Shown: positions 1,753 to 64,000 of the stretch, piece after piece | Position numbering within the stretch: position 1 is the first letter of the stretch | Layout of the letters: each line of letters begins with the position of its first letter | DNA from: a virus | Strand: one strand, 5' to 3' | Length of the DNA stretch: 64,000 nucleotides | IMG/VR virus record: IMGVR_UViG_3300049427_000004 | Location: 32,001-96,000 of that record | Made by a program: the position numbers and the translations under genes | Notes under the pieces: model-generated | Told to the model about the DNA's origin: nothing | Seen by the model: the letters and a program-made list of their open reading frames with translations, nothing else | The model's database searches: none

Positions 1753-1971
1753 AATAACACCTCCTCACACAAATGGTTTAATAATTTCGTCTTTGTATTC
1801 TGGAAATCTACGTTCAATCGCCTCTTGCACTTTCACGATATCCGAATCAATAAATTTTCCACCATAGTTCATTTTCATTTCTACATAAATAAAATTGTAC
1901 ATCCAATTTAAAAGTCCAACCTGCTTTTCGTCCATTTCTCACACTCCTTATGAATCTGTTATTTCGTTGCC

Positions 1972-2292
1972 TTATTTATACATTTCCTGAATTTGTTCTT
2001 CATATCTTTTCCAATCATCTTCATCGAAGCAGTTTCTATATGCAAGTAGTTCGTGCCCATCGTTTTCAATAATGTCATTAAGCTCTATTGCAATTGTATT
2101 CTCAAACATTCTTACTTCTAAGCCGCCTTCATCGAATGGGGAACTACCTACAATTTTGACGAAATCACTTAAATCAAAATGCCACACATGAACATAAGTA
2201 TAAACTGTTTTATCTTTTTCATAGTTTTTGGTGTATAGTCCAGTTTCATTGTTTCTTAGAAATTCATATAAATCAGCATCAACTAATTTCAA
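1972..2292 (-). CDS. Hypothetical phage protein
   Basis: 106-aa ORF; its start overlaps the end of the upstream ORF. Confidence 0.6.
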   Translation of the reverse strand: MKLVDADLYEFLRNNETGLYTKNYEKDKTVYTYVHVWHFDLSDFVKIVGSSPFDEGGLEVRMFENTIAIELNDIIENDGHELLAYRNCFDEDDWKRYEEQIQEMYK

Positions 2293-2457
2293 CTGCCCAT
2301 TCTCCCTTCTTCTCTACATCTGTCATTCCAAACGTTTTAAATGACGCATAATGCTCTCCAAACCATTTAGGCTGCAACATATCATATGTATAAGTTCGAC
2401 CTGTACAGGAGACAATTGTGGCTCCCTGAGATAGTTTAGTGATTGCTTTGTTAAGGT

Positions 2458-2772
2458 TCATTTTGACAGTTCCTCATATTGATTTAGATAAACTGGATCT
2501 ATGTATTGTAAAAACTCTGTTGCAAATGTACCACTAAAACCTTCTAGAAATACTACGCCATGTTCACCATTTCCGCGCTCATATTCATCTGAGCCACAAA
2601 TCCACACTCTGCCGAAGTACTTAGGATTATCATGCTCCATGCATGTGTGCATAACCACAGGATCACCTTTTTTAAGTCGATATTCTCCTCGCCTCAATGA
2701 ACTTACCTCCCAATGAAAATCATGTTTTATTAGCTTACATCCATATGATATTTCCTTCTTTGTGATAGACAA
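2458..2772 (-). CDS. Hypothetical phage protein
   Basis: 104-aa ORF, coupled overlaps with neighbours. Confidence 0.55.
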   Translation of the reverse strand: MSITKKEISYGCKLIKHDFHWEVSSLRRGEYRLKKGDPVVMHTCMEHDNPKYFGRVWICGSDEYERGNGEHGVVFLEGFSGTFATEFLQYIDPVYLNQYEELSK

Positions 2773-3211
2773 TATCGTCGTTTAGCATTTTCATCCACTC
2801 ATCTTTTGTAGCCATGTAATCAGCAAAAGTTGATACATTATCCGCTGCATACTCACACAATTCATCCAATGTCTCAAAAACTGGAGTCATAGGATGCCCC
2901 TCAGAAGTAGTGCTCCAAATTTGAAATCCTTCTCCCACAGGAGGTTCATAATACCAATGTTTCTTTAATTCTGAATTATTCCATACGCAATATCTTGCTT
3001 CTTCATCACAATTATTAAAAATTCGGTCACATTCTTTGCAAATAATTCCATCATACTGTAAAATTTCAGGAACTTGTTTGGTGATTTCCTTCATATGCTG
3101 GAAATCATCGAGAGTCGGAGCAAATCCCTTCCATACCTCTCCAATCTCATACTCGTAATCCAATGGAACTCTCTTCAATTCTCTTCCCATTTCATTTATC
3201 TCCTTTGCCAA
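2735..3211 (-). CDS. Hypothetical phage protein
   Basis: 158-aa ORF with GRELKRVPLD and GEGFQIWSTTSEGHPMTPVF segments typical of conserved phage hypotheticals. Confidence 0.6.
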   Translation of the reverse strand: MAKEINEMGRELKRVPLDYEYEIGEVWKGFAPTLDDFQHMKEITKQVPEILQYDGIICKECDRIFNNCDEEARYCVWNNSELKKHWYYEPPVGEGFQIWSTTSEGHPMTPVFETLDELCEYAADNVSTFADYMATKDEWMKMLNDDIVYHKEGNIIWM

Positions 3212-3950
3212 TCAAATCATTGTTTTATTACTTCTCACTTCATAAAGAATTCCATGTCATAGAAATTATCAAAGTTATCCATTCGAATATAGTTAACGAA
3301 GCCATCAGGAAATTCAACTTTATATCTAGGAATTGTTTTTGCAGCCACAGATGCATCTAACAAAGTAACTAAGCCGACAATAATTGGTGATCCTCCGTGA
3401 TTGGCATGAAAGTCATTTAGCTCCCACAAGGCATTATTCGCCTCAAACTCTTTTGAATCGTCACGATTTAACATAGGTTTTTTAGCTACTACTTTAATTT
3501 TTCCTTCTCTCATTTTATTTCCTCCTTCGATTTCAGACTATCGGTATCAATCTGTTCTTTATAAAGTTTCTCATAATCCTTAATCATAGCGTCTACATAT
3601 CTCCAGCTGCATTCATCATCACTGTTCCAAAAATCTTTAATTTCGTTATAGTATTTCTGCCTGTATCCATGTTGCAATACATATTCTTGAATCACATAAA
3701 TACTTTCTTCTGGGTCTTCATAAGAGCCGTTATGTCGATAAATTAAAGGGAGCAAAATTTCTGCATCTTCAGTTTTCAACTCTCCAAGATTGTCAATAAT
3801 CTCTAAACTACCGACATCGATTCTTGAATCATTCCAATGGGATTCAATAACTTCGATGATATCTCCTTTCGAATCTGTAATTACTCTTGCAAAACCATCA
3901 ATATTAACCATTAGCGTATCACCTTTCTTTGAAATCGCCGTTTGATTGGC

Positions 3951-4379
3951 TTATACATTTAAAACTTTCCACTTGCTATCTCTGAGTGTTAAGTAAACCT
4001 TGTCACCGTGTAAGAAGGTTGTAACTGCTCTATTATGCTTTTTAAGTTTTATGTAGATAGAGCCACCATGAACCACAATGATTTCACCCATTCTGCAATA
4101 TGCACCTGAATTAACTTTGATTCCTAATTTAAGAAGAGCCTCGATTTGTATATGTATGTTTTCATTTAAGATACCGTGTTTCTCTAGAAATTCAATAGCC
4201 AATTTATCTTCTTCTTTTCGCTTATTTTCATAGAAATCACTATACATCTTTGATTGAACATCGTTTAACTTATTTTTCAGAACCCTCCCGTCTACAACAA
4301 ATGTGTGACCATCAATATGTAAATTAACCAAACATTGACTCTCATCAATACAATTCTCGCTAAACTCAATATTTTGTAT
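3951..4379 (-). CDS. Hypothetical protein (probable ATA start at 4379)
   Basis: The frame of ORF 3951..4331 stays open to ATA at 4379, 6 nt after RBS GGAGGAG. Confidence 0.55.
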   Translation of the reverse strand: MQNIEFSENCIDESQCLVNLHIDGHTFVVDGRVLKNKLNDVQSKMYSDFYENKRKEEDKLAIEFLEKHGILNENIHIQIEALLKLGIKVNSGAYCRMGEIIVVHGGSIYIKLKKHNRAVTTFLHGDKVYLTLRDSKWKVLNV

Positions 4380-4877: not shown

Positions 4878-5192
4878 TGTATCACTCCTTATAAAACTCT
4901 TTTTGTTCTAATAGTCTGCATTCCAATTCATTAGAGAATCTGTAAACCAACTCACAAATATTCTCCATAGAAGAATTGGTAAACCAATAGGATTTCCTCC
5001 CATTACAGTTATGATAAACAACATTGTAATGAATCCTAAAATCAATGCAATCTGTGTTTCTTGTTTTCTAGTAAACAGAAAAACTAACACTAAAACAGTC
5101 ACTATAGTGTGCCATATATACATCCATACGGTTTCGATAATTCCGTTTAACTCTTCTCCTAATAAAAACTCTCTTTCGTCGTGTCACAGACT

Positions 5193-7724: not shown

Positions 7725-8267
7725 ATTGTCCTCCTTTTAATGGTCTTGAATGTGATATTTCATCGGTGTTCATACTTATTAATCATTAATTCCGTCAATT
7801 TCTTCTTTACAGGAGGGGCAAACGTGGGTGGCGCAATCTCTATATTCGGGATCTGATACACTTCCAATCTCACCTTTAAAAACTTCATTCGTCGCTCTGT
7901 CCCATTCTCGATTCCAGTTCTTAACTCCGCATTTTGGACATTTCGCTTTTAGCTTCATTCATTCTCCTCCTTATTTCCTTCAGTATTCATTCAGATACTT
8001 GAGCCAATTTCTCTTCAAGTTCTGATACTGTCGATTCCAACATTTCAATATCTTGAGTCAGTACCTTAATTTTCGACACAAGATGGTTCCATATCTCCTG
8101 TAGTTCTTCGCATTCTTGTTCCATGCCAGCAGAATAGATAATCTCTGTTAAGTTTGCGAATCTTTCTGTCATATCTTTCATTTCTTATCTCCTCCTTTAA
8201 TATAAAAATATCGTATTCAATATTTCTCTTATATCTTTCACTCGGTATATCCTTTGAAATTTAGTTT

Positions 8268-8705
8268 TTATGAGCCTGTTGGCTTCCATTCTGGATACTG
8301 TTTGTAGAACTCAGCAATGTACTTCTTGAAATATTCATCCATTCCTGTGCGCTTTAAGCAATCAACGGATTGAACATCTGACCCACAAAAATATTCCCAA
8401 TTTAAGTATAAGTCAACTTGTGCAGCCCTAGTACGCTTGATTCGTTTACAGTCATATAATTTTTCGAGAATTTCAATAACCTCTTCTTGATCGATTGAAT
8501 AAGATTGTTCTATTTCAGAACATTCAAATTGAATATATGCACAAATTGCTTCAAATTCATCTGCGTCATAAGGTGCTTCAATATATGACCTTCGCTTAGT
8601 TTCATCGTATGTATGAGTAAGACAATATTGATGATTGAAAGTTGATCTTGGTAATTGATTAACTTCTTTTAGCTTAGCTACAATTTCTTTTTCGTATTTC
8701 CCCAT
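8268..8705 (-). CDS. Hypothetical protein
   Basis: 145-aa ORF flanked by 18-bp sites at 8254 and 8732. Confidence 0.6.
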   Translation of the reverse strand: MGKYEKEIVAKLKEVNQLPRSTFNHQYCLTHTYDETKRRSYIEAPYDADEFEAICAYIQFECSEIEQSYSIDQEEVIEILEKLYDCKRIKRTRAAQVDLYLNWEYFCGSDVQSVDCLKRTGMDEYFKKYIAEFYKQYPEWKPTGS

Positions 8706-8748
8706 TTTTCATTTCTCCTTTTTATTAGGCTTTAAATCCTACATTTCA

Positions 8749-9477
8749 TTACCCAATCCTCTCAAGATTTCCGTTGCGCTCCATCTTAAACTTTGCTACC
8801 TCATCTTTATCTGTACCAGTGAACATCTTACGTGCTTTATTGAACAAGTTCATAATTGTATTGTTTTCATTCATATATTCTTCTTTTTCATTTTTAAGTC
8901 TTTCATTTTCTTTTTTATAGTGAGTAATCATAGCTTCTGATCCATCAAGTTTTTCTTGTAATTTCTTCAATTTACTTTCATGTATTTCCTTTTGGCTTTC
9001 AAGCTTTCGATTCTCTTCTATGTATTTTGTTTGTTCACTCATTGATGTTTCAACTAATGCAGCAAACTGTTCAACCTGATATTCAAGATTCTCTCTGTCA
9101 TTGTTATTTTGAGAAAGCTGGAACTCAAGATCAAAAATCGTTCCTTCCTTTTCCCTAACTAATGTAGTTAACTCTACAACTTGAGCAGTTTTAAATTTAT
9201 TGTCCTCAATAATTTTATTTATTTCTGAGATTACATCATATTCAACTTTAATTTCAGTTGAAGTAGCATCTTCAACAATTGCTTCTATTGATCCTTGAGT
9301 ATCAAAAAAGTTTTCTGGCAAATCCTTTTTCAATACTCTCCAGCGTTCTGCACAAGCTCCCTCCGATCTCTCAATTTTCTTGGACGTGTTTACAAATGCC
9401 TCAATTCTTGTTGCTGCATTTTTAATATTATCAAGTAGAGTATTATCTTCTTTTGTAGTCCACACTTTAACTTTCAT
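8749..9477 (-). CDS. RsfA/YlbO-like transcription regulator (Myb-like N-terminus, coiled coil)
   Basis: N-terminal WTTKEDNTLL...RSEGACAERW and C-terminal FKMERNGNLE resemble RsfA-family hallmarks. Confidence 0.6.
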   Translation of the reverse strand: MKVKVWTTKEDNTLLDNIKNAATRIEAFVNTSKKIERSEGACAERWRVLKKDLPENFFDTQGSIEAIVEDATSTEIKVEYDVISEINKIIEDNKFKTAQVVELTTLVREKEGTIFDLEFQLSQNNNDRENLEYQVEQFAALVETSMSEQTKYIEENRKLESQKEIHESKLKKLQEKLDGSEAMITHYKKENERLKNEKEEYMNENNTIMNLFNKARKMFTGTDKDEVAKFKMERNGNLERIG

Positions 9478-9831: not shown

Positions 9832-10176
9832 TTTTCATTTTCACCTTTTCGTTATGTATTTTTCTTATCTTCTTCCTTGAGACTTTTATGTAAGCAAGCG
9901 CAATGAGCGATAATGTAGTATAGATAATGCAAGAAGATACTAACACACTTATACCAATCAACTCCTTGTTATATTTCCATTTTTTACTTTGTGAGATTAT
10001 GATAGCATGGCTATACAGAAAAACGCAAGTACAATTTTTAATATTTTGCACTTGCGTCTGGATTCTGATCATTTTTACAAATTTCTGAAATTTGACCTTA
10101 AAAAAAGCTAGTGTTTATAAGGGTTTTTTAGTGCCAATTTCCCCATGAAAGGGTAGTTTTATCGGATGGGCGGTTT

Positions 10177-13409: not shown

Positions 13410-15431
13410 TCAAATGTAATCCTGAATAAACCTTGACGGTATAGCAACTTTTCCTCGATATGTATTAACGTAACTCAAATTCAACTGTTCTTCTGCTCTA
13501 GTCATTAATACGTAGGCGAGTCTTCGCTCCTCCTCCAAAGCCTCGTTAACCCCATTTCCTATATTGTCAGAGCATGGTTCTAGAGAAGATTTATGAGGTA
13601 GCAAACCGTCGTTCACAGTCAGTGCAAAAACCACAGGAAACTCCAATCCTTTCGACTTATGAATAGTCATCAGCTTAACACCATTAGAATTGTTTTTACT
13701 TTTATTTTCTTTCTGAATTTTCGCCTGTTTAATAATTCTTTCAATGTGTCGTACATACTCACCAATCTCATTGAACTTTTTCGAACTATTCTCAAGTTCA
13801 TTCAATGTTTCTCTAATAATTTCTCGATGTAAACTTGTCGATTCACTTTCTGCTGCATCACCAATTAAATATGATTCATAATCCTCACGTAATGCACGAA
13901 TAGCCAACATCGGTCTAAGTCCTGCAATACGTTTCATATGATTAATTTTTTCTGCAATTTTTCGTTTCTGGTAAGCACTACTCACTATGTCACTTGCATA
14001 TTCAATCGGATTTGCAATTGGATTCGCTTGTTGTAACTTACCTAATTCTTTCAATTTATCTTTAGCTATGTATAGAGTTGGAAGCACATCTCCCATTGAA
14101 CTAAAGTCATATGGATCAACAATTATACGTAAATATGAAAGTATCGGCTTGACTGTTCCATTGTCGTAGAATACTTCTCCTCCTGAGAAACTTGTGAATG
14201 GAACCTCATTCAAAAGAAGTGACTCAAAGATTGACCTAGAGATTGAGTTTGTTCTATACAGAACAGCAAAATCAGAGTATTTTCGTTTTTCTTGCTTAAC
14301 TTGACTCTTTATGTATTCAACAATTGCCTCTGCTTCATCCTCTGTTGTTTCATATTTATTAATGACAGGATATAAATCAGATTCTTTAATTGCAAATGAT
14401 TCTTTTGGAATTCTCAGTATATTTTTCTTAATTGCATCATTTGCCATGCCTAAAATTGGTGATGTACAACGATAATTAACTTTTAACTCAATAGTTTTCA
14501 CGTTTTCATACTTCTTGGGAAACTCTAAAATATTATTTAGTTTGGCTCCAGAAAAACTGTACACGCACTGGTCAGCATCTCCAATTATACAAATGTTATT
14601 TCTAGGATGGGCTATCATTTCGATGAGTTTAAATTGTAGATCGGAGGTGTCCTGAGCTTCGTCTACCATGATGTAATGCCATCTATCTCTTACAGATTCA
14701 AGCAAATCTTCATCATCGGATAGTTTCTGATATGCAAGAAGTAACATGTCATCAAAATCAATCAATGATTTATCATTCTTGTGGGCCTCATACTGCTGCC
14801 ATATTTCATGAAACTCTTTATCATACTTATCCGAATATCTATAATCAAATACATCGATTGCATTTTGCTTATAATGTGAAATCAACGCAAGAATATCCTC
14901 GGGGCGATGTTTTTTGTCTATTTTCATTGCTCTCAAAATAGTTTTAATAGTAATTTGGCGACCTTTATCGCTTGAGAATACCTCTCTGTCTTCTCCATTT
15001 TCACGTAGAATATCTAAAAACACTTTATGAAATGTTCCTGCTGTAACTTTTTTTAATTTATCTTTACTGGTCATTCCAAGTTTTGATGCTTTAGCCAACA
15101 TCTCTTCCGCTGCTTTACTGGTAAAGGTTATGAGTAGTACTTTTTCAAGGTCTATTTTATGCACTTGGTCTAGATATGACAGTCTCGCCACTACAGAGGA
15201 TGATTTACCTGCTCCTGCTCCGCTGTTAACCTGAGTGGCTCCTTCTTTGTGGCGTACCAAAATAATCTGATCTTCGTTAAGTTTTACCCCTTTCTCTTCG
15301 AGTTTTCTGAAGAAAAAGGAATCACTCATTGAATCTGAAACTAATTCAATTGATGTCAGATTGCTTGCTATTTTAGCTTTAGTGTAATTCAATTTTAATA
15401 TTTCACCTCTTAAATTTATTTTTATACCCAA
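13410..15431 (-). CDS. UvrD/PcrA-like SF1 DNA helicase
   Basis: AGAGKS, TFTSKAA, GTFH, VDEAQD, GDADQ, VNYRC, YRTN, TIHKSKGLEF, EERRLAYV motifs. Confidence 0.95.
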   Translation of the reverse strand: MGIKINLRGEILKLNYTKAKIASNLTSIELVSDSMSDSFFFRKLEEKGVKLNEDQIILVRHKEGATQVNSGAGAGKSSSVVARLSYLDQVHKIDLEKVLLITFTSKAAEEMLAKASKLGMTSKDKLKKVTAGTFHKVFLDILRENGEDREVFSSDKGRQITIKTILRAMKIDKKHRPEDILALISHYKQNAIDVFDYRYSDKYDKEFHEIWQQYEAHKNDKSLIDFDDMLLLAYQKLSDDEDLLESVRDRWHYIMVDEAQDTSDLQFKLIEMIAHPRNNICIIGDADQCVYSFSGAKLNNILEFPKKYENVKTIELKVNYRCTSPILGMANDAIKKNILRIPKESFAIKESDLYPVINKYETTEDEAEAIVEYIKSQVKQEKRKYSDFAVLYRTNSISRSIFESLLLNEVPFTSFSGGEVFYDNGTVKPILSYLRIIVDPYDFSSMGDVLPTLYIAKDKLKELGKLQQANPIANPIEYASDIVSSAYQKRKIAEKINHMKRIAGLRPMLAIRALREDYESYLIGDAAESESTSLHREIIRETLNELENSSKKFNEIGEYVRHIERIIKQAKIQKENKSKNNSNGVKLMTIHKSKGLEFPVVFALTVNDGLLPHKSSLEPCSDNIGNGVNEALEEERRLAYVLMTRAEEQLNLSYVNTYRGKVAIPSRFIQDYI

Positions 15432-16564
15432 CGAAATTTAAGTTTCGTTGCCTTTTTCACTCTGTTCGAACCTGCTATTCAATATTTCATTTTGTATGTA
15501 TAGCATCTTAGCATACTCTTGTAGTAGCACTATGTCCTGTGTAAACGTCTTAACGCTCACTTTTGCCCATCCTTTAGGACTTCTGTTTATTAACTCCTGA
15601 ATTCTTGGTAACATATTTCACCTCATATTCGTTGCCTTATTTAGAAGTTTTGGCTTATAAATAGATTTATCATACAAAACACACTGGCCTGTTTCCAAAA
15701 TTTCTTCTATGTATGACCAACTACTTACTAAATATTGACTTCCATTCGAATAGTATAGTTTAATACCATCTGTTACATTTCGGATTTTGACACCTTTTAG
15801 TTTTGCAATTTTTCTAATACTCTTTTCTCTCTCATCTAACATTCCAATAATCGTATACATTCTATTGTATCTCCTTTCTAATCAGCCCCTCAATATTCTT
15901 AGGATCATACCAATCAATAACCCAATGCACACCAAAAGGCGATGCAGCATTATGCATAATACCCACTCGTTTGCCTGATTTAGACCACGAATGAAATGAT
16001 GCTTCATGTAGTTTTTTATTTTTATGTTTTACAGATTGTTTTGGATAGTATGTATTATTCATTTATTATCAACCCCTATCTTAAATCCATGTATTTTACA
16101 TATCTAGTAATTGTCTTCGAAACCAGATACCTATTCCCTTTAGAGCTTTTAGGAGCCAACTTCACTTCTGCGATGTCTTGCTCAGTTTTCAAGTCAACTG
16201 CATAAGCAAAATATTCCTCTCCAACATTTAACTCTTTTCTAACTCTTTGTTCCAACTTATCCCATAGATTCATTTACAATTCTCCTCCTCATGAAAGACT
16301 TCTTTTATGACCTATTAATGCTCCAATTCTTGGTATGATCATCTAACCATTCTTTTAATTCGTTCTCATTTTCTATGTACTTCACATCAATCAGTGAAAC
16401 TTTTTCTCCTATATCCCAACTGAATGACTTTATGGATTTGAATTTAATATTTTCTATTTTTGAACTTTTCCCCACTTCTTTAGCATATACCACTTGCTCA
16501 CTTGTTGTTATATTTCTCATAACATAAACTGCATAGTTGCTTGGATATTTCAAATTTTCTCACC

Positions 16565-17020: not shown

Positions 17021-17105
17021 ATATTTTCTCCTCTTGTATGCCATTGAAAAGATTGTTTTATTTCCTATTGCTTGGGTAATAGCATATTTCGCATTGTTTC
17101 GACAA

Positions 17106-20293: not shown

Positions 20294-20310
20294 ATTGATT
20301 CCTCCGAATA

Positions 20311-20357: not shown

Positions 20358-21936
20358 TTATGCAAGAGAAATAATTTTACAGCTTCATTTATTTAAATAT
20401 ATATGTATTTTTAATTTTTTTGTTTATAAAATCATGCTTTCGTTGGCTACCATTCGCCTGTTTCATGAAATTCATCAATGCACGGATAGCAATAAATCAT
20501 ATCCTCATTTTCGTCGGATGAATATGGAGCTTTTGATTCCATATTTTTCGGTTCTAAACAATGGTCGCAAATAAAATCATACTTCTTATTCTTCTCATTT
20601 AAGTATTTGTCCTTATTATTTTCGATATAATTCATTGTTTTTTTAATACTCATAACTCGTCACCTCCTCATGAAAGCTATGTTTTATCATCTATAAGTCC
20701 TTCAATTTCAATTATGAAATCATCGGAATATTTTTCGAAAAATGATAATTCATATTTATATCTAGTCCTCTCCCAAAACGGGCATTTAATTACACCAGCA
20801 AAATATGTCCCTCTGTATTGGGCAGCTTCTTTGTTTTTACACCACCAAGTACCAATTCCGCCTTCGCAATGAAGACAATCATAACATGATTTCTTATTGT
20901 TATCTGCCTTGCCATTTACAATCACTTTTTTAAACGTTTTCTTCCCCCTATTAAATTGTGCTAAATATATAATCTGTCTTCAGTTACCATATCAGATAAA
21001 CTAACTCCGTCAACCAACAATTTATCCAATAATGCTCTTGCTTCTTCAATGCGTAAGGATTTAGTCTCTTTGTTTTGTCGGTAAGTATATTTCTTCTGAA
21101 GGTTTTGCTTAGATTGGTTTAGAAATTCAGGTATATTATTCATCATTTCACCGACACTCCATCCTCATGAAACATTCATTTGCTACTTCCAACGATCAAT
21201 CCACTTATAGAAATCCATGATGTTGCAAATTCCTAAAATGTGTCCACCGTCTGGATTCTCAATGTACTTCAAGCTATCAGTTTTGAGTGAGATATCCTCG
21301 ATACGTCTGATTGAAATTCCATCTGTATATGATTCGCCAACTACTAAGTCAAATGGTTCTGTGTATGGCATTTTTTCACCTTCCTAATGAAACAGAGTTT
21401 TTAACCGATGTATTTGTGCCATAGCGCAGCAAATGTTTTTGACCATTTACCATTTTTAAATTCATATCCATCAATGTATATTTTATTATTAATTGTTGTA
21501 ATGCTGAAACCCATCATATTTTCATGAAACGGAATTATCTTATCACCAAACACAACAACTCTTTTGTGCTGATTAACAAAAACTGATCCATTAATAAAAG
21601 CACCCACTTTACACCTCGATCCCAATTAATAAGTTTTTATGATCTCATTTTATCTCAAATGATATTGCTGCTGGCTTATTGCTCTCATACAGTTCCATGT
21701 GTTGCTCAACAAATTTATCCCATACTGTAGCCGTTAGTTCATATTGCCCATCTACTTCTTCTGCATCAGTAACAATACCAATCGCCTTGGAATTATCGTT
21801 AATATCTGCACTGAATCCAAAGCCCTTAACAGTTTTGTCTAGAACAGGAAGATTGATATAATCTCTCAGACTTCCATTTTTATTAACCTTCACTTTAATT
21901 ATCATGTACACTTCCCTCTCTACATGAAACCGATAT

Positions 21937-22587
21937 TTAATATGTTTTTATATATTTTCTTTTTATGTATTTTTTAACATCAAATCTTATCCATTGATAA
22001 ATTGCCAGATATCTTTCTCTAACAAAGAATGATTGGGTTTTATACCATTCGTTGAGTGTGTATTCTCCTTTTGAACTGTTACAACTATTACAAGCAGGAA
22101 TGCAATTTTTCAGGTCGTTCCTACCGTCAAAAACAACATGATCTCTATGTAAATCTTTATTCGTTTCTTTTTTATTTTCTTCCCAAGACTTGCCACAATA
22201 GGCACATCTGAAATTGAAGTACAATCTGCAATCATACCATTCTCTATCGGTTATCTTGTGTACCTTTGGCTTTCTATCTTTTGTATATTGTCTAGTCTTA
22301 TCTCTGTTGTTTTGCTGCCAATTTAAATATTTTCCACTTTTCCTGTGCTCTTCATTTGCTTTTTTATGTATAATTTTATGCCTTGGGTCTTTATTTCTTT
22401 TTGAATAAATCGTTTTCCATTTTTCAGGATTTCTCTCAATCCATTTAGATGCTTTCATGGCGGTACACTTCTTACATTCGGGATGATAATAGATATACTC
22501 GCCTTTAACTGTAGAATTTTTCTTGTAAGAATAAAAGTCTGATAATTTTTTGTGAGTGCCACAAACTGAACAATTTTTTGATTCTAT
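21937..22587 (-). CDS. HNH endonuclease with N-terminal zinc finger (probable ATA start at 22587)
   Basis: CAYC...RDHV...NCIPACNSCNSSKG; the frame stays open upstream through CSVC...CKKC to ATA at 22587, 9 nt after AAGGAG. Confidence 0.8.
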   Translation of the reverse strand: MESKNCSVCGTHKKLSDFYSYKKNSTVKGEYIYYHPECKKCTAMKASKWIERNPEKWKTIYSKRNKDPRHKIIHKKANEEHRKSGKYLNWQQNNRDKTRQYTKDRKPKVHKITDREWYDCRLYFNFRCAYCGKSWEENKKETNKDLHRDHVVFDGRNDLKNCIPACNSCNSSKGEYTLNEWYKTQSFFVRERYLAIYQWIRFDVKKYIKRKYIKTY

Positions 22588-44968: not shown

Positions 44969-45217
44969 TTAAACATCTCCTCTGGTTTCACATTTATACG
45001 TTCATTAAACTGCGCAAACATTCTTACTTTAAATATTAACATATTAAGTGCAAAAAATACATAGCTGTTGCTTTGATTAAAAGCAAAAACTACATATTCT
45101 CTAACCACACATTCATTTTTGAGTCTTATACATAAAGTCCTAAAAAGTAACTCTGATAAAGTCAATGTTTATTAAGGGTTTTACGAAGACAAAAAGACGA
45201 TGAATTTCCTCTTTCAT

Positions 45218-47857: not shown

Positions 47858-49236
47858 ACATATTCGCTCCCAACACGAACTACTTCGTCATTTTATTCAA
47901 AGTAATCATCTAGAGCATTTTTGATTACATTCATAGCCTCTTTTATAGACCTCTGTACGAGAAGATTTGATTTCATTTCTTCATAATCTTCTCCGCAATA
48001 TTCAACTTGAATTTGCCCCTTATCATTTCGAACTACTCCTGATACTGTCGCGACAACTTCCCAATTTTCATTAAATCTCGTCCAGTTTTCATGCTCTATA
48101 TCACATTCTTCATCATATATTTCCCATGCCTGTATCGCAATAGAACATTTGAATTCAAACTCATCTGATTCACTATAGTAGTCTAGTGAATCAGATATTT
48201 CAACTTTAGTCCATACTTTCAAATTATTTCCTCCTACGAAATCATCGTTTCAACAACTTCTAATTGAGTCTAGAATTATCATACTCCCTCCAAAAGCATC
48301 CATATCATCGTCCCAATAGATAGCACCAATTTTTGTTTCATTTTCCCAAGCCTCAATGCTAAAATTACATTCTTTTTCTAAAACACTCATTTTCATTGAT
48401 AGAGCCTTTGAGATATCTTTTGTCACTAGTTCAATAAAAGTCTCATCTGCTCCGTCCGCTCTTACTAAGTAAATCAATATTATCACATCCTATAAATCCG
48501 TTATTTAATTGCCTGTATGTTTGTGACTGACAAAATAAAAGCAGCATAATTAAATATTCGATTCTTCTGTTCAGGGCTGATAGATTTTCCTTTATAGGAA
48601 AAATTAATATGAGTTACAGGTGTAGATAATTCACTATGACCCTGTGCTTCCACAACTTTAAAATCATCAAGTGATTCAATAAATCTGTATCCATTGTCAT
48701 ATAGTTTGTCAAATGATTCTAACAACAGGTCATCACTCATATGATCACTCCTTCTTCTTTCTTGGTTTCTTAAATAATGTTTTAGATAAGTCATACGGAT
48801 CGACATCTCTTCTCGTTGTCTTGTGATCTTTTGTATAAATCAAAAGTTTCATCTCACAGTTAATTACTTTCACTTGAAATTCACTCATATACTTCTTACA
48901 CCAAATAAGCCCTGATTCTTCCCTTGGGTTATAGTGTGTTGTAATTTTAAAGTCATTGACGTAAATTTCAAATCTCAAGTTGTAATTAAAACTCAAATTA
49001 CTATTTCCTCCTTGGAGCTTCGTCGCGAATTTATTATGCAATCCTTGATTCTATTTGATTAAATTACGCAATTGATTTATACTACTATACGCCACTCTCG
49101 TCTGAGAGCCGCCAAAAGATTTTTCCATACTACCATAAGCCATGGTTATGGTTTTTATCCTTTTGGAAAGTTAGCTGGGTTGCAGATAAGTTGCAATCTG
49201 GCTTTCTTTTATTATTGGAAGTTCTATCTTAAAGCT

Positions 49237-50431: not shown

Positions 50432-50981
50432 TATTGATCAGTCCTCTTTTTGTACTGATAAAACAACTCATTTATTGTAACTTTTTAATTGCTCGATAAT
50501 TCCAGCTATCTCATTTTGTAATGACAGGAAGTCATTCAAATCCCCAGTCAGAGACACTGTACCATCTTCCAAGATTTTAAGTTCAGCAGCATTGATATCG
50601 AGATAGTTGTCAGTATTAACATTCAAATATGTAATATCATAATCTGCATGATTCAGTTCAACTTTTACTTTCATTTTTCCATCCTCCTTCCTCATGGAAC
50701 TAGTATTTCATTCAGATTCCTCATTGTTGGAATCGATATCAATCTTTACTTGTCGTTTCAACCAATCCAAAACTTTTCTGCCATCAGATGCTTTGTAGAA
50801 ATCTAGAAAATCATCAATTTGAACATGGAAAAAATGATCATTAAGATACTCTTCCAGTTTGGAAGCTGTAATATAAAAATAGAAGTCACTAAATTGATTG
50901 TTCGCTATTAACTGGATCTTATCTGACTTATTTCTGCCCATGTTGTTATGTATCTCCCTGTTGTCAGTAATGAAACCTTTT

Positions 50982-51413: not shown

Positions 51414-51996
51414 GTTGACTTCTCCTTAAATAATCATTTCCTACCTTTGAAATCCGTGTTTTATCGTATTTTAAATTCTCTATAAAAAGGCCTGCTTGTT
51501 CGCCAGAAACCTTCCATTCCAGAACAAGTGATGAATAGTCCTTCAGTCCGCTTCTCCATTGAAATTCCGAAAATGTAAAAAATAATATTGAACATTTTAA
51601 TCATATCTTTATCACACCTTTTAATCAGATAAATTCAGACTTTTAACCACTCATCTAATGAGTCTTTAACTCCCACTATATAAAGCTGTATCACTTCTTA
51701 AATCAATATCGAGTTCAACTTCACCTTTGTAAAAATCCTTCTTGGTCTTCTTATCCGTCAAATACATTTTAATTGTGCTTCCCTCTCTTACTATGAATAG
51801 ATCATAACCACGCTCACTGAAGCCATCTTCTAACTCATCTAAATCTTTTCCTTTATGCAAAACTCCTAGATTATTTGCCCATCTCCTCAAGTTCTTCATC
51901 ATTTCTTTTTCTAGCTTCTTTAAACTGCTTTCCATTCTTGTTGTCATATAAACATCTCCTCAAATTTAAGTGCATGAAATTAGGTTTTCATTATCC

Positions 51997-53437: not shown

Positions 53438-54865
53438 CTCTTATTCTAATTTTTCCGTTATGATAATTCATTTTTAATATTTTCACTTGATGGAAAGTAT
53501 ACCTGTAACTACACAAGCCGTAATTAGAAACCCAAAATTCTTCGCCCAAATCATCAATAATTGCAAATTCATACTCATCATCAAAGAAATCAAAATCCAC
53601 AACTCGATAAATTCTATCATTAGAAATAAACTTTTCTTTTGATCCATTGTAAACATCTCTAAAAGCTTTAAAGAAAGGCATACTATTGTCACCCTTTCCC
53701 TATTAAATGTGTCATTTATTTGGTTAGAGGAATACCTTTTTCTATTTTCATTTGAATAATTTTATTTTAAATTTCTTTATACCCCTTTGCTCTCCACCTA
53801 ACAACTTCAGAATTCCCATCGGTGTCCTCTGCTTCTGCAAGTGCTTCACAGGTGTGCTGAATATCATCCAAGATATCTGCATATGACTGCAATTCTTCGT
53901 AAGTTTCCTGTACTTTTTCTGGCATATTTTCTCCTCTCGAAATGCGGATTTCATTTGCTAATCTGCCGCGACATGTGCCGAAAGTTTGTAGTCGAATGCC
54001 TGAATGACTAAATTAGAACCATCCTTAAAACTTATAACTATTGATCGTTTCTCAATATTAATGTTATCGATAGTTGCATTTGTTAAATGGTCAATGATTT
54101 CTTGGTTATCTTCAATTCTGAACATAGTTTCCTCCCTATTAAATACCGATTTTAACACCTTATTTTTCAGAATGGGCAATCAGTTTGCCAAGAATACCGC
54201 CAGCCCAATGTATGTTGCTTTTCAATTGTTCGTTATGCATGTCATCAATTACCTTCAGACGATCTTGCAACCTTCTATTTTCTCTTCGCAGTCTAACATT
54301 TTCCTCAATCATACTTACAGTTGCAGTTGCATTAATATACAGCTGCTCTTCATCTGGTGTTAACTCCATAGAATCAATAATATCGTAACGGTTTAATTTG
54401 AACATTTTCATTTCTCCTTTTTTATAAATTATTGTTGTATGATTCGATTAGTCCATTAACAATTTCTCGTTCTTTAATCCAATTTCTTATCTCTTGACCA
54501 GTGTGCTCACACAGATCACAGGTTTCTTCATCTTCTGGGATTCCTCCGTATGAACATGCTTGACAATTCCAAGTTTGAGGTAATTTAAATCTTATTCTCA
54601 TGTCAATTCTCCTTATAAAGTAGTGATTTCATCTAAACAGAATCTCTTGCCTTTTTCACTGCTGAGTATACATCAAATGCATAATCATCTTTCATATCTG
54701 AGTACCCCCACGTTCTCTCATCCAGCATATCTCTAGCCAGCTCAAGACATTTGCTAAGTTTTTCGCGTAATTCGTTTCTTCTTTCATCATAACTCGTTAC
54801 AACACCCATTTGCCTTATCTCCTTTTGTATATTAATTTAGTGAATAAAAGAACAATTTTAATACC

Positions 54866-55102: not shown

Positions 55103-56985
55103 CTCCTCTCTCTTTTAACAAGCTACAGGGCTATTCTGACACTCTTTCCATTTCGTATAGATATCTAACACCATTTTGACTTCATGAGTCGCTGGTTTCA
55201 ATTTAGGATGCCATGCGTCTGAATCATTCTCAAGAAGCACTAGCAAATCAAGTTGAAAGTTAGAAATGGATACTTTTAATTCAGTTTCAGCAAATTTGAT
55301 AATATTCATTTTTATTAATTCCCCATTCGTTTTATGATAATTAGTTTTAATGTAGTGTTTGGTATTTGCCAGTGTTGTTATCATAATTCATATCGTACAA
55401 TTTATCCTTGATCTTTTTGATACATGCAGCCACTCGCTCATCTATGCTTTGTTCTTTTTCAAGTTCCTTTCGGGCTTTTTCTTGTGATACTGAAATCAAT
55501 GTCGCTTGGCTGATGTAGAAATCAAAAGCAAATGTATTGAGATCATCTACTGTTATCTTAGTGTTTGTGATATTATCGAAAATTTGTGTCGCAAAACCTT
55601 TACCAAATGGATAGAAAACAAATGACACATCGCATAATTCATTTTGTTCAGCAAGGATTAAATCAATTTCTACTTCGGTTATGTATTTGTTTTCTGCTTT
55701 GATTTTGTTCCGTAAGAAGTCCTCTTCAATAAATCTTACACGCATTCCGAAATCACTAACTTTCATTGTTATCATCTCCATTTTTATTTTTAAAGTACTT
55801 GAAAATCACTATTTATTGCTCTTCTCGTTGCATCTCAAGCCATTTACTATATCGGATACATCTCGTTTCTGCGTTTGAACCAATAAAAACTAAGTCACCC
55901 CAATTTTTAGACAATGGCTCAATCCCTTTAGGAACTTGCTCTGTGAACACTTGCCATTTGCCATCAATCAAAGCTTCATTGACTGCTTCATCTTCCCAAC
56001 TTTCAACCTTTAAAAACTGAAAAGCATTATTTGAATAATAGAAATTCTTTTCTTTAGTCACTGTAAACTCATCTCCTTTTAATTCTGCTTTTCATTTACT
56101 GCTTCAAGATTGCTCTTGCATGTAGGACTTCATAAAATTTTACCTCAGTAATTTCTTCAATCTCAATTAATTCATTTTTATAATTCCAAAATCCATCAAC
56201 TTTATCGTGCCAGATGCAGCAAATAGCTCTGTTGAATTCGTCCTTTGAATCAAGAAAATAGGTAAGTCCATTATCAGAACTTAACTTGAATCCCCTACAT
56301 TCTTTTTCAAGATAACGCTTTTGATTGTGTGTTTGATTTAGATCCCCTTTTATATAATAATTCATGTTTATTCCTCCTCTTACAATCGCTCTTTCATAGT
56401 CTGTTATTCATATCTGCTTTGGATCTTCCATCCAGTTAATTGACCTTCCCTATACAAAGGTAACGCCTCATTGTAATTATGTGGTAACTTTTGAACATTT
56501 AGTTTAAAATCGTCTTCTTCACTTCTGTTATATTCTCTTTTGATAATCACTACTTATCTACCCCCTTATCCGATAAATGACTTATTTCATCAGGATTGCA
56601 TCAATAATTTTCTGACAAGAATTATTGTAATGCGCCTGAGCCAGTTCCATACTTTTCTCTAAAGTATACACATCTCTCGCAATATCATTACCATCAAACC
56701 AAATCATATATGTATCATTATTTCCTTTTGAAATGAGATAATGACTTCTCTTAATTCAAAAGTCAACCCATGTCTCGTATTTATGTAACAAGGTTGGCTT
56801 AAGCTCCAATTTCTTAAACATATTATTTTCTCCTTTTCACTTTAAAATAAAATACTTCTTTTATCACCCTACACATATTCATTTTCAATTACCTTCACGA
56901 TAACTATCTTCCCATCTACTCCTACTGCTTTGAATCCGAGTGTTTTCATTTTTCTCATCTCCTATTATATGAATCCTTTCATTAC

Positions 56986-57585: not shown

Positions 57586-58444
57586 TTATCATTATCACCT
57601 TTCTGCTATTAGTTATAAAATATTCATTTTATGTACTTAGTAAACTGCTCAGTCACTTCATTTCCTTTATCGAAAATCGCTCCATTCTCCTTCACCTCAA
57701 AACCAGATAATTTGAGCAATTCAATAATTTCATCCTTTGTTTTACTAAAGTAAAAATCATCAGTGTCTTTTTGGAACTTTTCTAATTTTGATGACACACT
57801 TACCACCACCTTATGAAAGGATCAATTTATTAGCCGATAGCAACAATTTGTCTAACTAAGTTCATTCTATAATTCGGTTCGCTCCACATAATTTTTTTTC
57901 TTTCTTCTACCTCATATTCAGCAGCATCTTTTTCTTCTTTCAGTTTATCAATATTATCATTCAGTATCATGTAATTTCGTTGAATCTCCAGAAAGATTTC
58001 TTCCAACTCTGAGTTAGGATTTTTGAGTACAAACGATTCAAGTTTATCAATTGATTGTTCTAACTTCATCATATTCAACCCCCAATGAAAATATAGATTC
58101 ATGTGCTTTCTTTATGTATTACTGCTTCTTTTTGATAAGTTCATCTTATCATTTATATATGTAAACTGCAACAACTATTTTACATTTTTTCGTTTTGTTA
58201 TTGATATATAAAAAAGTCCAACATGATCACTCGGATCATACTGGACTATGTGGGTTCATTCTTCAGAATGTTTCTCATATTTTAAAGAGCATAACTTTTT
58301 TATCACCGATCTTCACACTGGCCTTTCTTGTTCTTTCAGCTTCAGTAAGTATTGATATCACATTACCAAATCCCAAATTTTCAAAAAATTCCGCAATGCC
58401 TTCTTTGCTAAACATTGCATCACGAGTACCCCAAATTTTATAAC

Positions 58445-60231: not shown

Positions 60232-60510
60232 TCATTTTATTATCTCATCAATTTCATCAGCCTCTATATACTCCCATTCATATAAATCTCTAGGATTGCA
60301 GTTAAGAGCATCTGAAAGGCAAACTGCTACAGATAATGTCATATTATCTCTTCGACCAGTACAATAAAATGATATTATTCTGAAATCAATTCCTGATTTA
60401 TGAGCCAACATAGTCTGGTTCATGCTTCTTGATTTGATTACTTCTTTGAGGAGACACTTGCCTTGAACCAATTTCTTCATAATTGTCACCTCATAAATTA
60501 CTTGATTCAT
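60232..60510 (-). CDS. XRE/Cro-like HTH regulator
   Basis: LKEVIKSRSMNQTMLAHKSGID...LSDALNCNPRDLYEW. Confidence 0.8.
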   Translation of the reverse strand: MNQVIYEVTIMKKLVQGKCLLKEVIKSRSMNQTMLAHKSGIDFRIISFYCTGRRDNMTLSVAVCLSDALNCNPRDLYEWEYIEADEIDEIIK

Positions 60511-61516: not shown

Positions 61517-61891
61517 TACATAAAAAATTAAAAATCATCCTATAGACTTACAATAAAGCAAGGCTATAACATAATCATTTTAACTTACTCTTCATCAATC
61601 CTTAGGGTGCTCATATCTGCTTCTCTAACATTCAAAGTCTTAAGAACACCTTTTACCAGCTCAACTTCTGTTGATGCATACGTGCCATGATTTACTCCAT
61701 CAATGTAAAGAACAGCCCCACCATCTTTCTTGATTAGCAACTGAACTTGTTTCATAAACTTACACCTCCCTCTTTAATTCTATAATTGTATTATACCACA
61801 ATTTTCAATTTTTCTCAACTGAACACAATCATAATGATTATTTGGTTTTAAAGTAACGGTGATGAAACGGCTCTTTAATTGGGTAAAAGAA

Positions 61892-61925
61892 AAGCCCTGA
61901 GTTAAGCCCTCAGAGCCGCTCTAAC
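61892..61925 (-). terminator. Intrinsic terminator after a small basic ORF (about 61902..62069)
   Basis: GCTCTGAG...CTCAGGGC followed by TTTTCTTTT on the minus strand. Confidence 0.55.
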
Positions 61926-62142
61926 ACGGTAAACCAGTGTTCTCCATACTTTACGCATAGAGCGTTTCTTCTCCGTTCTAAAGACTACTACAACCTTCGT
62001 AGGGCACGAAATAACGACTGGCTTACCTTTTTGCATTTCAATTATGACTCTCTTCAAATCTATCAACTCCTCTTGTGTTATTGATAGATTATATGCTAGA
62101 GTTGATTTTATTATTCATCAAATTATATTTTTCATTTTTAAT

Positions 62143-62541
62143 TTACATTTGAAGCAACTTTATTAAAATATCTCGGCTAACTTTTGATGTGCAATTCTTG
62201 ATGTTTTCAGTTATCAAGAATGTTAAAAATGATTTAATGTGCGCTGCCTTATTTCCTTTTGTAACACTATTGTCATATGACGAAAGAAAAGTATCAATAT
62301 CTTCTCGTTTGCACATGGCAACATCTTTTCCTAAACCCTCTAGAAAATTGCTTATTGTACATTTATATTGGTAATAAGATGAACGTTGACTCTTATTGTT
62401 ATCGATATCTGGATACTTGGCAGTTTGGAAAGAATCTAAGTAAGATCGGTTAAGTTCAGAAATTTTGTAAACTTTCATTTTGCTTACTTTGCTATCCAGC
62501 GTTTCAACATCATCGATTGACATTTGAATCAACTCTCCCAC
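62143..62541 (-). CDS. Stand-alone integrase core-binding (SAM-like) domain protein
   Basis: YKCTISNFL...KREDIDTFL...KGNKAAHIKSFLTFL resembles the phage-integrase N-terminal SAM-like domain; no catalytic domain follows. Confidence 0.5.
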   Translation of the reverse strand: MGELIQMSIDDVETLDSKVSKMKVYKISELNRSYLDSFQTAKYPDIDNNKSQRSSYYQYKCTISNFLEGLGKDVAMCKREDIDTFLSSYDNSVTKGNKAAHIKSFLTFLITENIKNCTSKVSRDILIKLLQM

Positions 62542-62729
62542 AATATTACCTCCAATTCAACCTATGTATTTTTAATTTCGTTATAAAGTTCAATTGCTAA
62601 TTTGAAGTCAATCAAATTTCCATTACGAGTAATGATGTAAGGTTTTCCCTGAACAACACGAGCTTTCATCAATTTTACCTCCTTTATTAATGAATTAGTG
62701 TTTAAAACAATATTTTCATCGTGATAAAA

Positions 62730-63074
62730 CTAACAAGCTAAAGCTATTTGATTATTTCCTATAACAGAAATTGCTCCCTTGGTAACAGCGTGAACAGACT
62801 TTACATTGAATTGAGAGAAATCAAATATGAATCCTTCATGAATAAAAGTAGGTTTGATTTCTGATACTTGGCTCAATTTATTTAGAAGCTTGTAAAGATT
62901 TTTGAATGATACACAGCTAATCACACTCATTCCTTCTTCAAACTCTTGAGTTATTGGTTCTCCGATAATTGCAGAGGGATCAATATGAAGCAGCTTCAAT
63001 GTTATAGCTAGAGGACTTACAAGAATAGTTCCATGTCCGAAGATAATTTTGTTTCCTTCAATCATTTTTATCAC
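62730..63074 (-). CDS. Hypothetical protein
   Basis: 114-aa ORF between 18-bp sites at 62702 and 63097. Confidence 0.55.
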   Translation of the reverse strand: MIKMIEGNKIIFGHGTILVSPLAITLKLLHIDPSAIIGEPITQEFEEGMSVISCVSFKNLYKLLNKLSQVSEIKPTFIHEGFIFDFSQFNVKSVHAVTKGAISVIGNNQIALAC

Positions 63075-64000
63075 TCCATTATTTTATAATTTATTGATAA
63101 AATAGATATTTTACTGGCTGTATTTTATGAGATGTGCGTAGTATTCATAATCATTGTCAGTCGCACTCATAATGCAAGAATTAACTTTCATTCTTCTAAC
63201 TTTCCCATTGTCTACCCAACCTTCCTTACTTAAAGCTTCTACATGATTATCTCGTTCTTCAATGGTGCCATATGTGTATTCAACTACCTCATAATTATTT
63301 ATCTTTTTCATCTTATTAATCTCCTTTTAGGTATTGAAATGGTCATTTGATTACCCTATAACTTGCTGCCACTCGTCAACACATTCAGAACATTCTTTAG
63401 TCTCTTCGATTACTTGACCTTTGCTATTTACAGTGTATTTAATTGTAGAGTGTACACCACAAATATAGCACTTTCCGAAACCTTCTTTTTGCTCATACTC
63501 TCCTGTAAATATGGAGACATCTGGTTCAATAATTATGATTGACACATACATCATCCTTCCATAGATATGTGTATTTAGACCGTAAACCTTTGTCAAATAT
63601 ACGGTCTTGTTCCCTTAAGCCATTTGAGCCTTAATGAATGTCCCTGTAATCATTCCAGCCTGTTCGGTAGCAGCTTCTTCTGTCATTTGCAGTCTAACCA
63701 TTAAATCATTTTTTAGTTTGTTGAACAGTTTATCAGCGTTCAATTTTTTAACCTCTGTTACAACGTTTTGATTTTTCATTCATCATCGCTCCGTTTCGGT
63801 CGTTTTGTATATCCTTATTCTAATACTTTACATATATAAAGTCAACTGAATTATTAAAATTTCTATTTTTATCTTTTACCCTATAAAGTCTTAGTTTCAA
63901 GGGCTATGAGGCCACGATATTTAAGTGCTGCTGTTATAGTGAAATCTTGAACACTCAAAAAAAGTCGCCGTGATTAAAAGTGTCGGCTGTTATAGTAAAG

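Follow-up and report, generated by a model that had tools for sequence, protein, structure and literature searches.

We describe a short interrupted palindrome that stands at the junctions between small genes of a phage genome. The window analysed is a stretch of 64,000 nucleotides, bases 32001-96000 of the 178,866-bp virus record IMGVR_UViG_3300049427_000004 in the IMG/VR database (93% complete, about 33% G+C). The element, which we call the junction site, consists of two inverted 6-bp arms around a 6-bp centre. All copies have the arms in common, and the centres are specific to map position: related genomes carry the same centres in the same order, with unrelated genes between them. We put at roughly 0.55 the probability that these sites are addressed crossover joints, where a putative enzyme would join DNA in a manner that depends on the identity of the spacer.

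On this proposal, a two-fold symmetric protein would presumably hold the inverted arms, ATRAAA and TTTYAT, and the centre would act as an address. DNA would be broken and rejoined at the centre or within it, and only where the two sites have identical centres. Co-resident SPbeta-like genomes, whether of two phages that infect together or of a phage and a prophage already present, would be able to cross over in register without flanking homology. Over many rounds of exchange, the small genes would be reassorted along an unchanged series of sites.

Mosaic phage genomes raise the question of whether modules are exchanged through chance illegitimate joins or through dedicated linkers, and the junction sites look like linkers of an unusual kind, with a shared handle and a positional address that persist across phages with little other DNA in common. 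If true, the proposal would explain how large temperate phages of the Bacillus type keep a fixed genome plan despite the turnover of dozens of small accessory genes, those for defence and counter-defence included, and it could give a function to the orphan recombinase YopP. The idea is directly testable, since the sites occur in the genetically tractable phages SPbeta and phi3T. For ordered DNA assembly, too, such a naturally occurring collection of about 100 mutually exclusive addresses would be of practical use.

The phage and the genomes compared

The phage is judged to be a distant member of the SPbeta/Tsamsa group of large temperate siphoviruses, because of the nearest relatives of one protein and the gene order beside it. 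This protein, of the MrpR/YopR/SroF family (42626-43600, minus strand; 324 aa; Pfam MrpR_N_CB and MrpR_C_cat), has its closest kin among deposited phages in the Tsamsa-like Bacillus phages (31% identity) and the SPbeta-like phages (29%). A gene for a DndB-like YopQ homolog lies directly upstream, which matches the yopQ-yopR order of SPbeta. A nucleotide search of a phage collection with 6 kb of the window returned zero matches. The minus strand holds almost every gene at about 5-114 kb of the genome, and the majority of these genes are small.

We refer to the genome under study as G000. Its centres were compared with those of whole related proviruses (G001, G002, G003, and G005). The motif is carried by 8 related records (G001-G003, G005, and G007-G010), where L009 denotes the locus of G003, and shared centres were found in further viral contigs (L115, L123, L132, L140, L147, and L155).

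Geometry and placement of the sites

The preliminary description of the window had claimed about 50 copies of the motif WYRAAW-N6-WTTYRW, with a spacer of fixed length and some 10 hits expected by chance, and our counts are close to these figures. The window holds 57 matches, against a mean of 12.35 and a maximum of 20 in 100 dinucleotide shuffles. When the spacer is scanned from 0 to 14, N6 alone is enriched (57 matches vs 4-22 at other lengths), and a control motif that is reversed without being complemented matches once. The concentration at gene junctions is likewise beyond chance, as had been proposed: in the minus-strand gene block, intergenic DNA extended by 8 nt has 63 matches compared with 3.6 in shuffles of the same segments, and other spacer lengths give 3-12 matches there. 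An iterated position weight matrix (PWM) recovers 104 sites genome-wide, 67 of them in the window, vs about 7 in local shuffles. Of the 104 sites, 92 lie between genes or across a gene edge, and the sites occupy 83 of the 184 same-strand junctions. The array continues past the window, over about 5-114 kb of the genome, and is sparse among late genes.

On the coding strand, the typical order is stop codon, site, Shine-Dalgarno (SD) sequence, and start codon. An SD-like tetramer follows within 16 nt at 51 of the 67 sites in the window, and the median gap from the edge of the site to the start codon is 15 nt. This is the order that had been read from the sequence at the outset, and the example then given, at 20670, reads as claimed. 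The N6 peak is also present in SPbeta, in Tsamsa, and in most of 11 related IMG/VR loci; the dyads of SPbeta and Tsamsa lie immediately after stop codons, ahead of the ribosome-binding site (RBS).

The core consensus is ATRAAA-N6-TTTYAT, in which position 7 is seldom A and position 12 seldom T. Dyad symmetry is confined to the 6-bp arms, and complementarity at outer positions 1-9 is at the level of chance (23-30%). At the variable arm positions 3 and 16, the pairs are A:C (26), G:T (19), A:T (17), and G:C (18); covariation of the pairing kind is absent, as it is at positions 1 and 18. This absence argues that there is no selection for an RNA or cruciform stem, and thus for a protein site on duplex DNA. 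Each half-site behaves as a separate copy of a single recognition sequence, a sign that the binder is a two-fold symmetric protein. Signals for transcription are not in excess around the sites: we found 79 matches resembling sigma70-type promoters where 87 are expected, and 3 resembling terminators where 6.9 are expected, with none on the coding strand. No Rfam family matches at the sites, and one tRNA is the sole family in the region.

Position-specific centres in a conserved order

Centres held in common between genomes fall into long collinear chains. G003 and G002 have 28 centres in common, 26 of them in one chain, where chains from shuffled centres have a mean of 8 and a maximum of 15. 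All 24 centres common to G003 and G005 are in the chain, as are 15 of the 17 common to G005 and G002. The genome under study has 9 centres in common with G003, and 8 form a chain, which was reached by 0 of 500 shuffles; the figures are 7 of 12 with G001 and 6 of 9 with G002 (P about 0.05 each). A control with reverse-complemented centres gives 0-7 in common and chains of at most 3.

The likeness between matched sites ends with the sites themselves. Identity is confined to 18 bp, the 40-nt flanks are about 30% identical, and 68 of 86 matched sites have no tblastx match (E<1e-3) within 450 nt on either side. Matched sites agree in every one of the six bases of the centre, while their free arm positions 3 and 16 are alike in 47% and 51% of cases vs 44% and 42% of random site pairs. 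Between distant genomes, arm variants track the homologous flank as a weak trend (42% vs 18% for the right arm and 40% vs 29% for the left). One-mismatch centres at syntenic positions are no commoner than chance, and the sites between anchors look unrelated.

The spacing between neighbouring common centres varies widely, for example 272 vs 1047 nt. Three consecutive centres, at 26130, 25793, and 25526, recur in the same order in L009, where the intervening genes are unrelated and differ in length. A scan of viral contigs with the centre at 56573 revealed the five-centre run from 58085 to 56573, in order, in at least 8 independent contigs. Across 10 contigs, the slot between 56847 and 56573 has 6 unrelated fillings of 162-811 nt. 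Because gene content turns over around centres whose order stays fixed, the centres are part of the backbone rather than of a cassette.

Within a genome, the centres are kept distinct. Among 424 sites in 5 genomes, there is 1 duplicate centre pair (12.3 expected), there are 3 inverted centre pairs (15.7 expected), and there are 0 palindromic centres (10.2 expected). The 116 sites of G000 alone contain 0 duplicate pairs where 3.9 are expected (P=0.015), in keeping with the early impression that nearly all spacers differ. Unique and asymmetric centres are what a reaction dependent on centre identity would require, because identical or palindromic ones would lead to intragenomic deletions and inversions. 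The preliminary description had suggested cassette shuffling by recombination without spacer homology, in the style of integrons or Tn916. Shuffling survives in outline, given that centre order is kept, the genes between are unrelated, and breakpoints in the SPbeta group fall at sites; the mode does not. Spacers that are position-specific, identical between genomes, and both unique and non-palindromic within a genome are the signature of a reaction that needs spacer identity, whereas integron-like accretion would duplicate the site or tie it to a gene, and neither is seen.

Homology breakpoints in the SPbeta group

Because no relative of the window phage is close enough for direct mapping, breakpoints of homology were compared among SPbeta, phi3T, SPR, and Goe11 over the yopS-yorK region. 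Fifteen of 88 breakpoints lie within 12 nt of a site centre, where 1.1 are expected at random and 4.5 under an intergenic-only null (P=4e-5), and 7 of the 17 SPbeta sites are used in this way. At 12 sites, one flank is homologous and the other unrelated; the centre is identical in 11 of these, and 4 of the 5 arm differences are on the unrelated side. Such a footprint is what joining within or next to the centre would produce. Goe11 has an extra unit of 1.2 kb with a centre of its own; relative to the corresponding SPbeta site, it is placed precisely where the left arm meets the centre. Therefore, insertion of units also happens.

Sites in the window

The sites are listed in window coordinates. 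"Strict" marks a match to WYRAAW-N6-WTTYRW, the number is the PWM score, and "PWM only" marks sites with no strict match.

1032..1049 (-), junction site, gene edge; strict; PWM 12.5
1950..1967 (-), junction site; strict; PWM 16.1; centre also in G001, outside the collinear chain
2713..2730 (-), junction site; strict; PWM 18.6
3211..3228 (-), junction site; PWM only, 16.9
3929..3946 (-), junction site; PWM only, 16.2
5162..5179 (-), junction site; strict; PWM 14.3
7746..7763 (-), junction site; strict; PWM 18.3
8254..8271 (-), junction site, gene edge; strict; PWM 16.2
8732..8749 (-), junction site; strict; PWM 14.9
10145..10162 (-), junction site, then promoter-like repeat; strict; PWM 22.6
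15431..15448 (-), junction site, gene edge; strict; PWM 15.6
16291..16308 (-), junction site; strict; PWM 19.6
17044..17061 (-), junction site; strict; PWM 15.3
20426..20443 (-), junction site; strict; PWM 15.7
20670..20687 (-), junction site, stop within site, then RBS; strict; PWM 17.9; the example cited above
21387..21404 (-), junction site; strict; PWM 15.3
21924..21941 (-), weak junction site; PWM only, 11.4
22613..22630 (-), junction site; PWM only, 13.1
22854..22871 (-), junction site; PWM only, 14.0
23508..23525 (-), junction site; strict; PWM 15.4
23819..23836 (-), junction site; strict; PWM 19.2
24204..24221 (-), junction site; strict; PWM 18.7
25526..25543 (-), junction site; centre in order in G003 and G001; flanking genes unrelated
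25793..25810 (-), junction site; centre in order in G003 and G002; flanking genes unrelated
26130..26147 (-), junction site; centre common to G003 (L009, about 1524) and G005
26993..27010 (-), junction site; strict; PWM 16.9
27784..27801 (-), junction site; strict; PWM 11.6
28260..28277 (-), junction site; strict; PWM 17.0
28705..28722 (-), junction site; strict; centre also in G003 and G005, non-collinear
29023..29040 (-), junction site; PWM only, 15.8
29561..29578 (-), junction site; strict; PWM 14.1
29955..29972 (-), junction site; PWM only, 14.9
30298..30315 (-), junction site; PWM only, 13.9
30833..30850 (-), junction site; strict; PWM 17.4
31429..31446 (-), junction site; strict; PWM 17.0
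31777..31794 (-), junction site; strict; PWM 15.1
32029..32046 (-), junction site; strict; PWM 16.9
32228..32245 (-), junction site; strict; PWM 13.9
32916..32933 (-), junction site; strict; PWM 15.2
36019..36036 (-), motif match inside an open reading frame (ORF) call, the 189-aa 3D-domain gene; strict and PWM
36849..36866 (-), junction site, then promoter-like repeat; strict; PWM 18.1
39690..39707 (-), site in non-coding stretch near tRNA-Met; strict; PWM 16.0
42031..42048 (-), motif match inside AgrB-like ORF; strict
45200..45217 (-), junction site after ligase gene, then promoter-like repeat; strict
48236..48253 (-), junction site; strict; PWM 15.6
48492..48509 (-), junction site; PWM only; centre in order in G002
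50458..50475 (-), junction site; strict; PWM 16.7
50694..50711 (-), weaker site; PWM 10-11; centre in order in G001
51447..51464 (-), junction site; centre in order in G001
51974..51991 (-), junction site; strict; PWM 11.7
53702..53719 (-), junction site; PWM only, 13.2
53937..53954 (-), junction site; strict; PWM 17.0
54138..54155 (-), site inside ORF call; PWM only, 14.5
54615..54632 (-), junction site; PWM only, 12.5
54844..54861 (-), site in doubtful ORF context; strict; PWM 12.3
56380..56397 (-), weak junction site; PWM only, 11.4
56573..56590 (-), junction site, downstream slot end; centre in order in G001, G002, G003, and at least 8 further viral contigs
56847..56864 (-), junction site, upstream end of the six-filling slot; centre in order in G001, G002, G003, and further contigs
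57615..57632 (-), junction site; centre in order in G002, G005, L115, L132, and L147
57813..57830 (-), junction site; centre in order in G003, G005, L115, L132, and L155
58085..58102 (-), junction site; centre in order in G003, L123, L140, and L155
59997..60014 (-), junction site; strict; PWM 13.6
60493..60510 (-), junction site; strict; centre in order in L147
60992..61009 (-), junction site; centre also in G001, L147, and G009
61862..61879 (-), junction site; PWM only, 17.8
63097..63114 (-), junction site; PWM only; centre in order in G001
63334..63351 (-), junction site; PWM only; centre in order in G001
63883..63900 (-), junction site; PWM only, 15.7

The promoter-like repeat spans about 22 nt, has a good -35 hexamer at its end and a consensus near AAAACCCTTATAAACATTGACT, and follows the junction site at several longer gaps. 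Copies lie at window positions of about 45160-45181, 36810-36831, and 10106-10127 (minus strand), and at genome positions of about 153613, 141495, and 103597. It may be the phage's own early promoter or operator, a counterpart of SPBRE, the MrpR-bound element of SPbeta.

Candidate enzymes and binding proteins

Outside the window, the record encodes one large serine recombinase, presumably the integrase, and two proteins of the phage-integrase family. An intact tyrosine recombinase beyond the window had been suspected from the start, and it is present, for instance as a homolog of YopP/SroD at 113156-114217 of G000, in which the R, K, HxxR, H, and Y are all intact. YopP homologs occur in all 8 related motif-bearing records and in SPbeta, and are absent from the provirus G006; a PDB sequence search with the YopP homolog gave no match. 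We consider a YopP-type tyrosine recombinase the leading candidate enzyme for the sites, a lead and not a link.

Other candidates were set aside. The second protein of the phage-integrase family, a structural-module tyrosine recombinase of the Tyrovirus gp50 type, does not qualify as the enzyme of the sites, given that SPbeta is without the protein and that the sequence after the gene in Thrax4 is not of the junction type. The 132-aa ORF at 62143-62541 has only a sub-threshold SAM-like match, with no clear kinship to recombinases. In SPbeta, the YonO polymerase starts the late operon from a single site (PMC5467207), so the dyad is not a YonO promoter.

The preliminary description had offered a second idea, in which a YopR-like repressor binds the sites as an array of stoperators, and it does not withstand what is reported for this protein family. 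MrpR gives 10 chromatin-affinity (ChAP-seq) peaks on SPBRE in SPbeta (PMC10516654), and SroF binds a 24-nt motif as a monomer (bioRxiv 10.1101/2025.11.27.690993, 2025 preprint). We located SPBRE upstream of 7 of the SPbeta genes named there; it is asymmetric, embedded in promoters, and unrelated in sequence to the junction dyad. The homolog at 42626..43600 was rejected as the binder of the dyad on these grounds. Since SPbeta and Tsamsa carry the dyad, distinct from SPBRE, it is a separate family-wide feature. The SPbeta annotation also lists "palindrome" features at L002 positions 17857-17872, upstream of yopM, and 22395-22412, in the yopR/yopS gap; these are neither SPBRE nor the junction dyad.

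A site at genome 144497-144514 (window coordinate 112497) is of the junction type and overlaps the stop codon of the structural-module tyrosine recombinase gene, among late genes where sites are rare.

Weighing the readings

From comparison of the genomes, we infer that recombination takes place at the sites, that it needs identity of the centre, and which enzyme may be responsible. Inverted arms around a 6-bp overlap would fit a tyrosine recombinase best: the core geometry of this class, inverted arms with an overlap of 6-8 bp, is found here in the N6-only enrichment and the symmetric PWM. A more specific form of the proposal is a natural, genome-wide grid for heterospecific recombination, with about 100 same-arm sites, unique 6-bp overlaps, and a YopP/SroD-type enzyme that would exchange slots in register without homology; this form we advance tentatively, as possible and somewhat against the odds.

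Several observations weigh against addressed crossover joints. The support consists of comparative footprints, with no observed recombination product, excised circle, or bound protein; contigs of the sole DNA sequencing run with this phage, probably the source metagenome, contain no joints, and no RNA run with it is listed. Known tyrosine recombinases have arms of about 9-13 bp, and only 6-7 bp are conserved per arm here, with no symmetry further out. The co-occurrence of YopP and the motif is confounded by phylogeny, and SPbeta's own YopP carries a Lys at the second catalytic Arg. For G000, collinearity is strong with G003 alone; with G001 and G002 it is borderline. Relatives of the window share at the DNA level only the gene for a Y-family polymerase. 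The preliminary description asked whether breakpoints fall in the spacers; in the SPbeta group they lie near sites in the 15 cases given above, the other 73 of 88 are away from detected sites, and therefore the sites are at most one route to mosaicism. Finally, 8 inter-site segments are homologous between genomes, and in none of them are both flanking centres common (in 5, neither is), so genes are not strictly tied to slots.

Joints of this kind might also be made without a tyrosine recombinase, with the same in-register outcome and other chemistry, and we give this a modest chance. In a cut-and-rejoin version, a dimeric nuclease would cut within the centre, the ends would carry the address, and the phage ATP-dependent ligase would reseal them in order; interrupted-palindrome restriction sites, which allow ordered ligation, are the model. 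In a short-homology version, the 10-18 bp of identity at matching sites would suffice for phage annealing or end-joining functions. Both versions accommodate the comparative evidence for addressed joints no less well, 6-bp arms are closer to restriction-type recognition than to recombinase arms, and the window encodes Ku, a Sak4-like annealase, and an HNH endonuclease. Moreover, a homolog of the ATP-dependent ligase is kept in G001, G002, G003, G005, and SPbeta, which leaves room for a nuclease-plus-ligase or a short-homology mechanism. A family-wide nuclease, however, was not found, and none of the relatives searched has a homolog of Ku or of the HNH-HTH_7 gene. Cleavage at about 100 points would put a genome at risk, and pure homology-driven exchange leaves the dyad symmetry and the exact 6-bp spacing unexplained. 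Integron-like insertion, where gene and site would move as one, be excised as a circle, and enter elsewhere without spacer homology, would account for the RBS-ORF-site form of the units, for the Goe11 unit lodged between arm and centre, and for the few homologous genes found between different centres in different genomes. It is very unlikely in view of the kept map order of centres amid changing genes, the zero duplicated centres within G000, and the lack of the pairing covariation expected of folded attC sites; no integron-type integrase, attI, or common promoter was noticed, although no search was aimed at them.

The remaining readings give the sites no part in recombination. A dimeric protein of phage or host could use them as a regulatory array, serving as a roadblock to read-through, a silencer in the lysogen, or a timer of early expression. 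Such a role suits sites that are dyad-symmetric, immediately precede the RBS, and are limited to the early gene block, the phage encodes an MrpR-family repressor and other HTH proteins, and the stoperators of phage L5 are a precedent for repressor sites at junctions. We nevertheless regard it as improbable: centres that keep their positions amid unrelated flanks, and that are unique and non-palindromic, go unexplained, there is no excess of promoters or terminators around the sites, and the MrpR/SroF operator is a different, asymmetric, monomer-bound motif with 10 in vivo peaks in SPbeta, even though SPbeta has the dyad. A signal in RNA or for translation before each RBS, such as a weak A/U hairpin, a processing site, or a ribosome standby element, would agree with a distance to the SD sequence downstream that hardly varies (15 nt, at the median, to the start codon) and with the A/T-rich composition. 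This we find hardly credible, for the variable arm positions lack covariation and A:C is their commonest combination, an inverted repeat of the dimer type is meaningless on single-stranded RNA, and neither an Rfam match nor an explanation for position-specific conserved centres is at hand. The reading as addressed, spacer-identity-dependent joints remains the one we favour.

Other features of the window and its relatives

The gene for the Y-family (ImpB/UmuC-type) polymerase, at 19052-20317 (minus strand), is the sole DNA-level similarity within 25 kb to 11 related viral loci, and its surroundings differ. The provirus G006 (L004; 58.7 kb, 43% G+C) has this gene in common, with 0 matches to the dyad and no YopP homolog, and it is the sole one of ten records that has neither. 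Genes for Ku (46069-46959) and the ATP-dependent DNA ligase (45218-46072) are adjacent on the minus strand and form a phage-borne end-joining pair; of the two, only the ligase is kept in relatives. The minus-strand gene at 34691-35446 encodes an HNH endonuclease with a fused resolvase-type HTH_7 domain; the relatives searched have no homolog of it, and it resembles a free-standing nuclease of the homing type.

An AgrB-like gene (41984-42508) and a LytTR-domain gene (40568-41086), both on the minus strand, come immediately after the YopQ/YopR pair on its downstream side. In SPbeta-like phages, arbitrium genes usually sit near that locus. A tRNA-Met (CAT) at 39512-39589 (minus strand) occupies a non-coding gap of the early block.

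Comparison with known systems

We found no published description of the element in the literature searched, the Tyrovirus paper included. The nearest described elements are the promoter-early stem-loops (PeSLs) of T4-type phages, pdif modules, and engineered heterospecific lox/FRT sites; a defining feature separates each of them from the junction sites.

As reported by Arbiol et al. (2010, PMC2839356), PeSL cassettes are repeated between small non-essential early genes of T4-type phages, combine a sigma70 promoter with a terminator stem-loop, recombine via shared sequence, and are proposed to drive modular shuffling. They resemble the junction sites as short repeats between small early genes, at points of insertion, deletion, or replacement between related phages, which for the junction sites is the excess in the SPbeta group (15/88 vs 4.5). 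The junction sites differ in that they have no promoter or terminator signal and no pairing constraint, and in a unique centre kept by map position; in addition, no mini-circles have been observed for them.

Two repressor systems were also compared with the array. SPBRE is a repeated element in the same phage family, and its binder has a recombinase fold and a homolog in the window. It has about 10 copies that are promoter-embedded, asymmetric over 15-24 nt, and monomer-bound, whereas the junction dyad is symmetric, has about 100 copies, and lies outside promoters. The stoperators of L5 are 13-bp asymmetric repressor sites with one conserved sequence and an orientation rule. They too are numerous in short intergenic gaps of one-directional gene blocks; the junction sites differ in their symmetric arms and their variable, position-specific centre.

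Integrons also consist of promoterless single-gene units separated by imperfect inverted repeats. The attC site folds as a single strand, travels with its cassette, and needs IntI, whereas the junction sites keep their map order and show neither duplication nor covariation. Compensatory changes in a stem, the mark of REP-like elements and RNA hairpins, are likewise absent from the junction sites.

Sites of tyrosine recombinases offer geometric parallels. The dif sites, and the pdif modules of Acinetobacter plasmids, are served by host XerC/XerD and have 11-bp arms of two kinds, a XerC side and a XerD side. They resemble the junction sites in inverted arms around a 6-bp centre, in A/T-rich inner arms, and in gene modules that are bounded by sites and occur in varied contexts; pdif centres are not known to serve as position-specific addresses in a fixed order, and the arms of the junction sites seem to differ in sequence from Bacillus dif. 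Engineered heterospecific lox/FRT sites, used for cassette exchange with Cre or Flp, have 13-bp arms and 8-bp overlaps, recombine only when the overlaps are identical, take their direction from the asymmetry of the overlap, and are used a few at a time. They have in common with the junction sites inverted arms around a short asymmetric overlap, with differing overlaps as independent addresses. There, the addresses are man-made; here, with 6-bp arms and a putative recombinase, they would be natural, about 100 to a genome.

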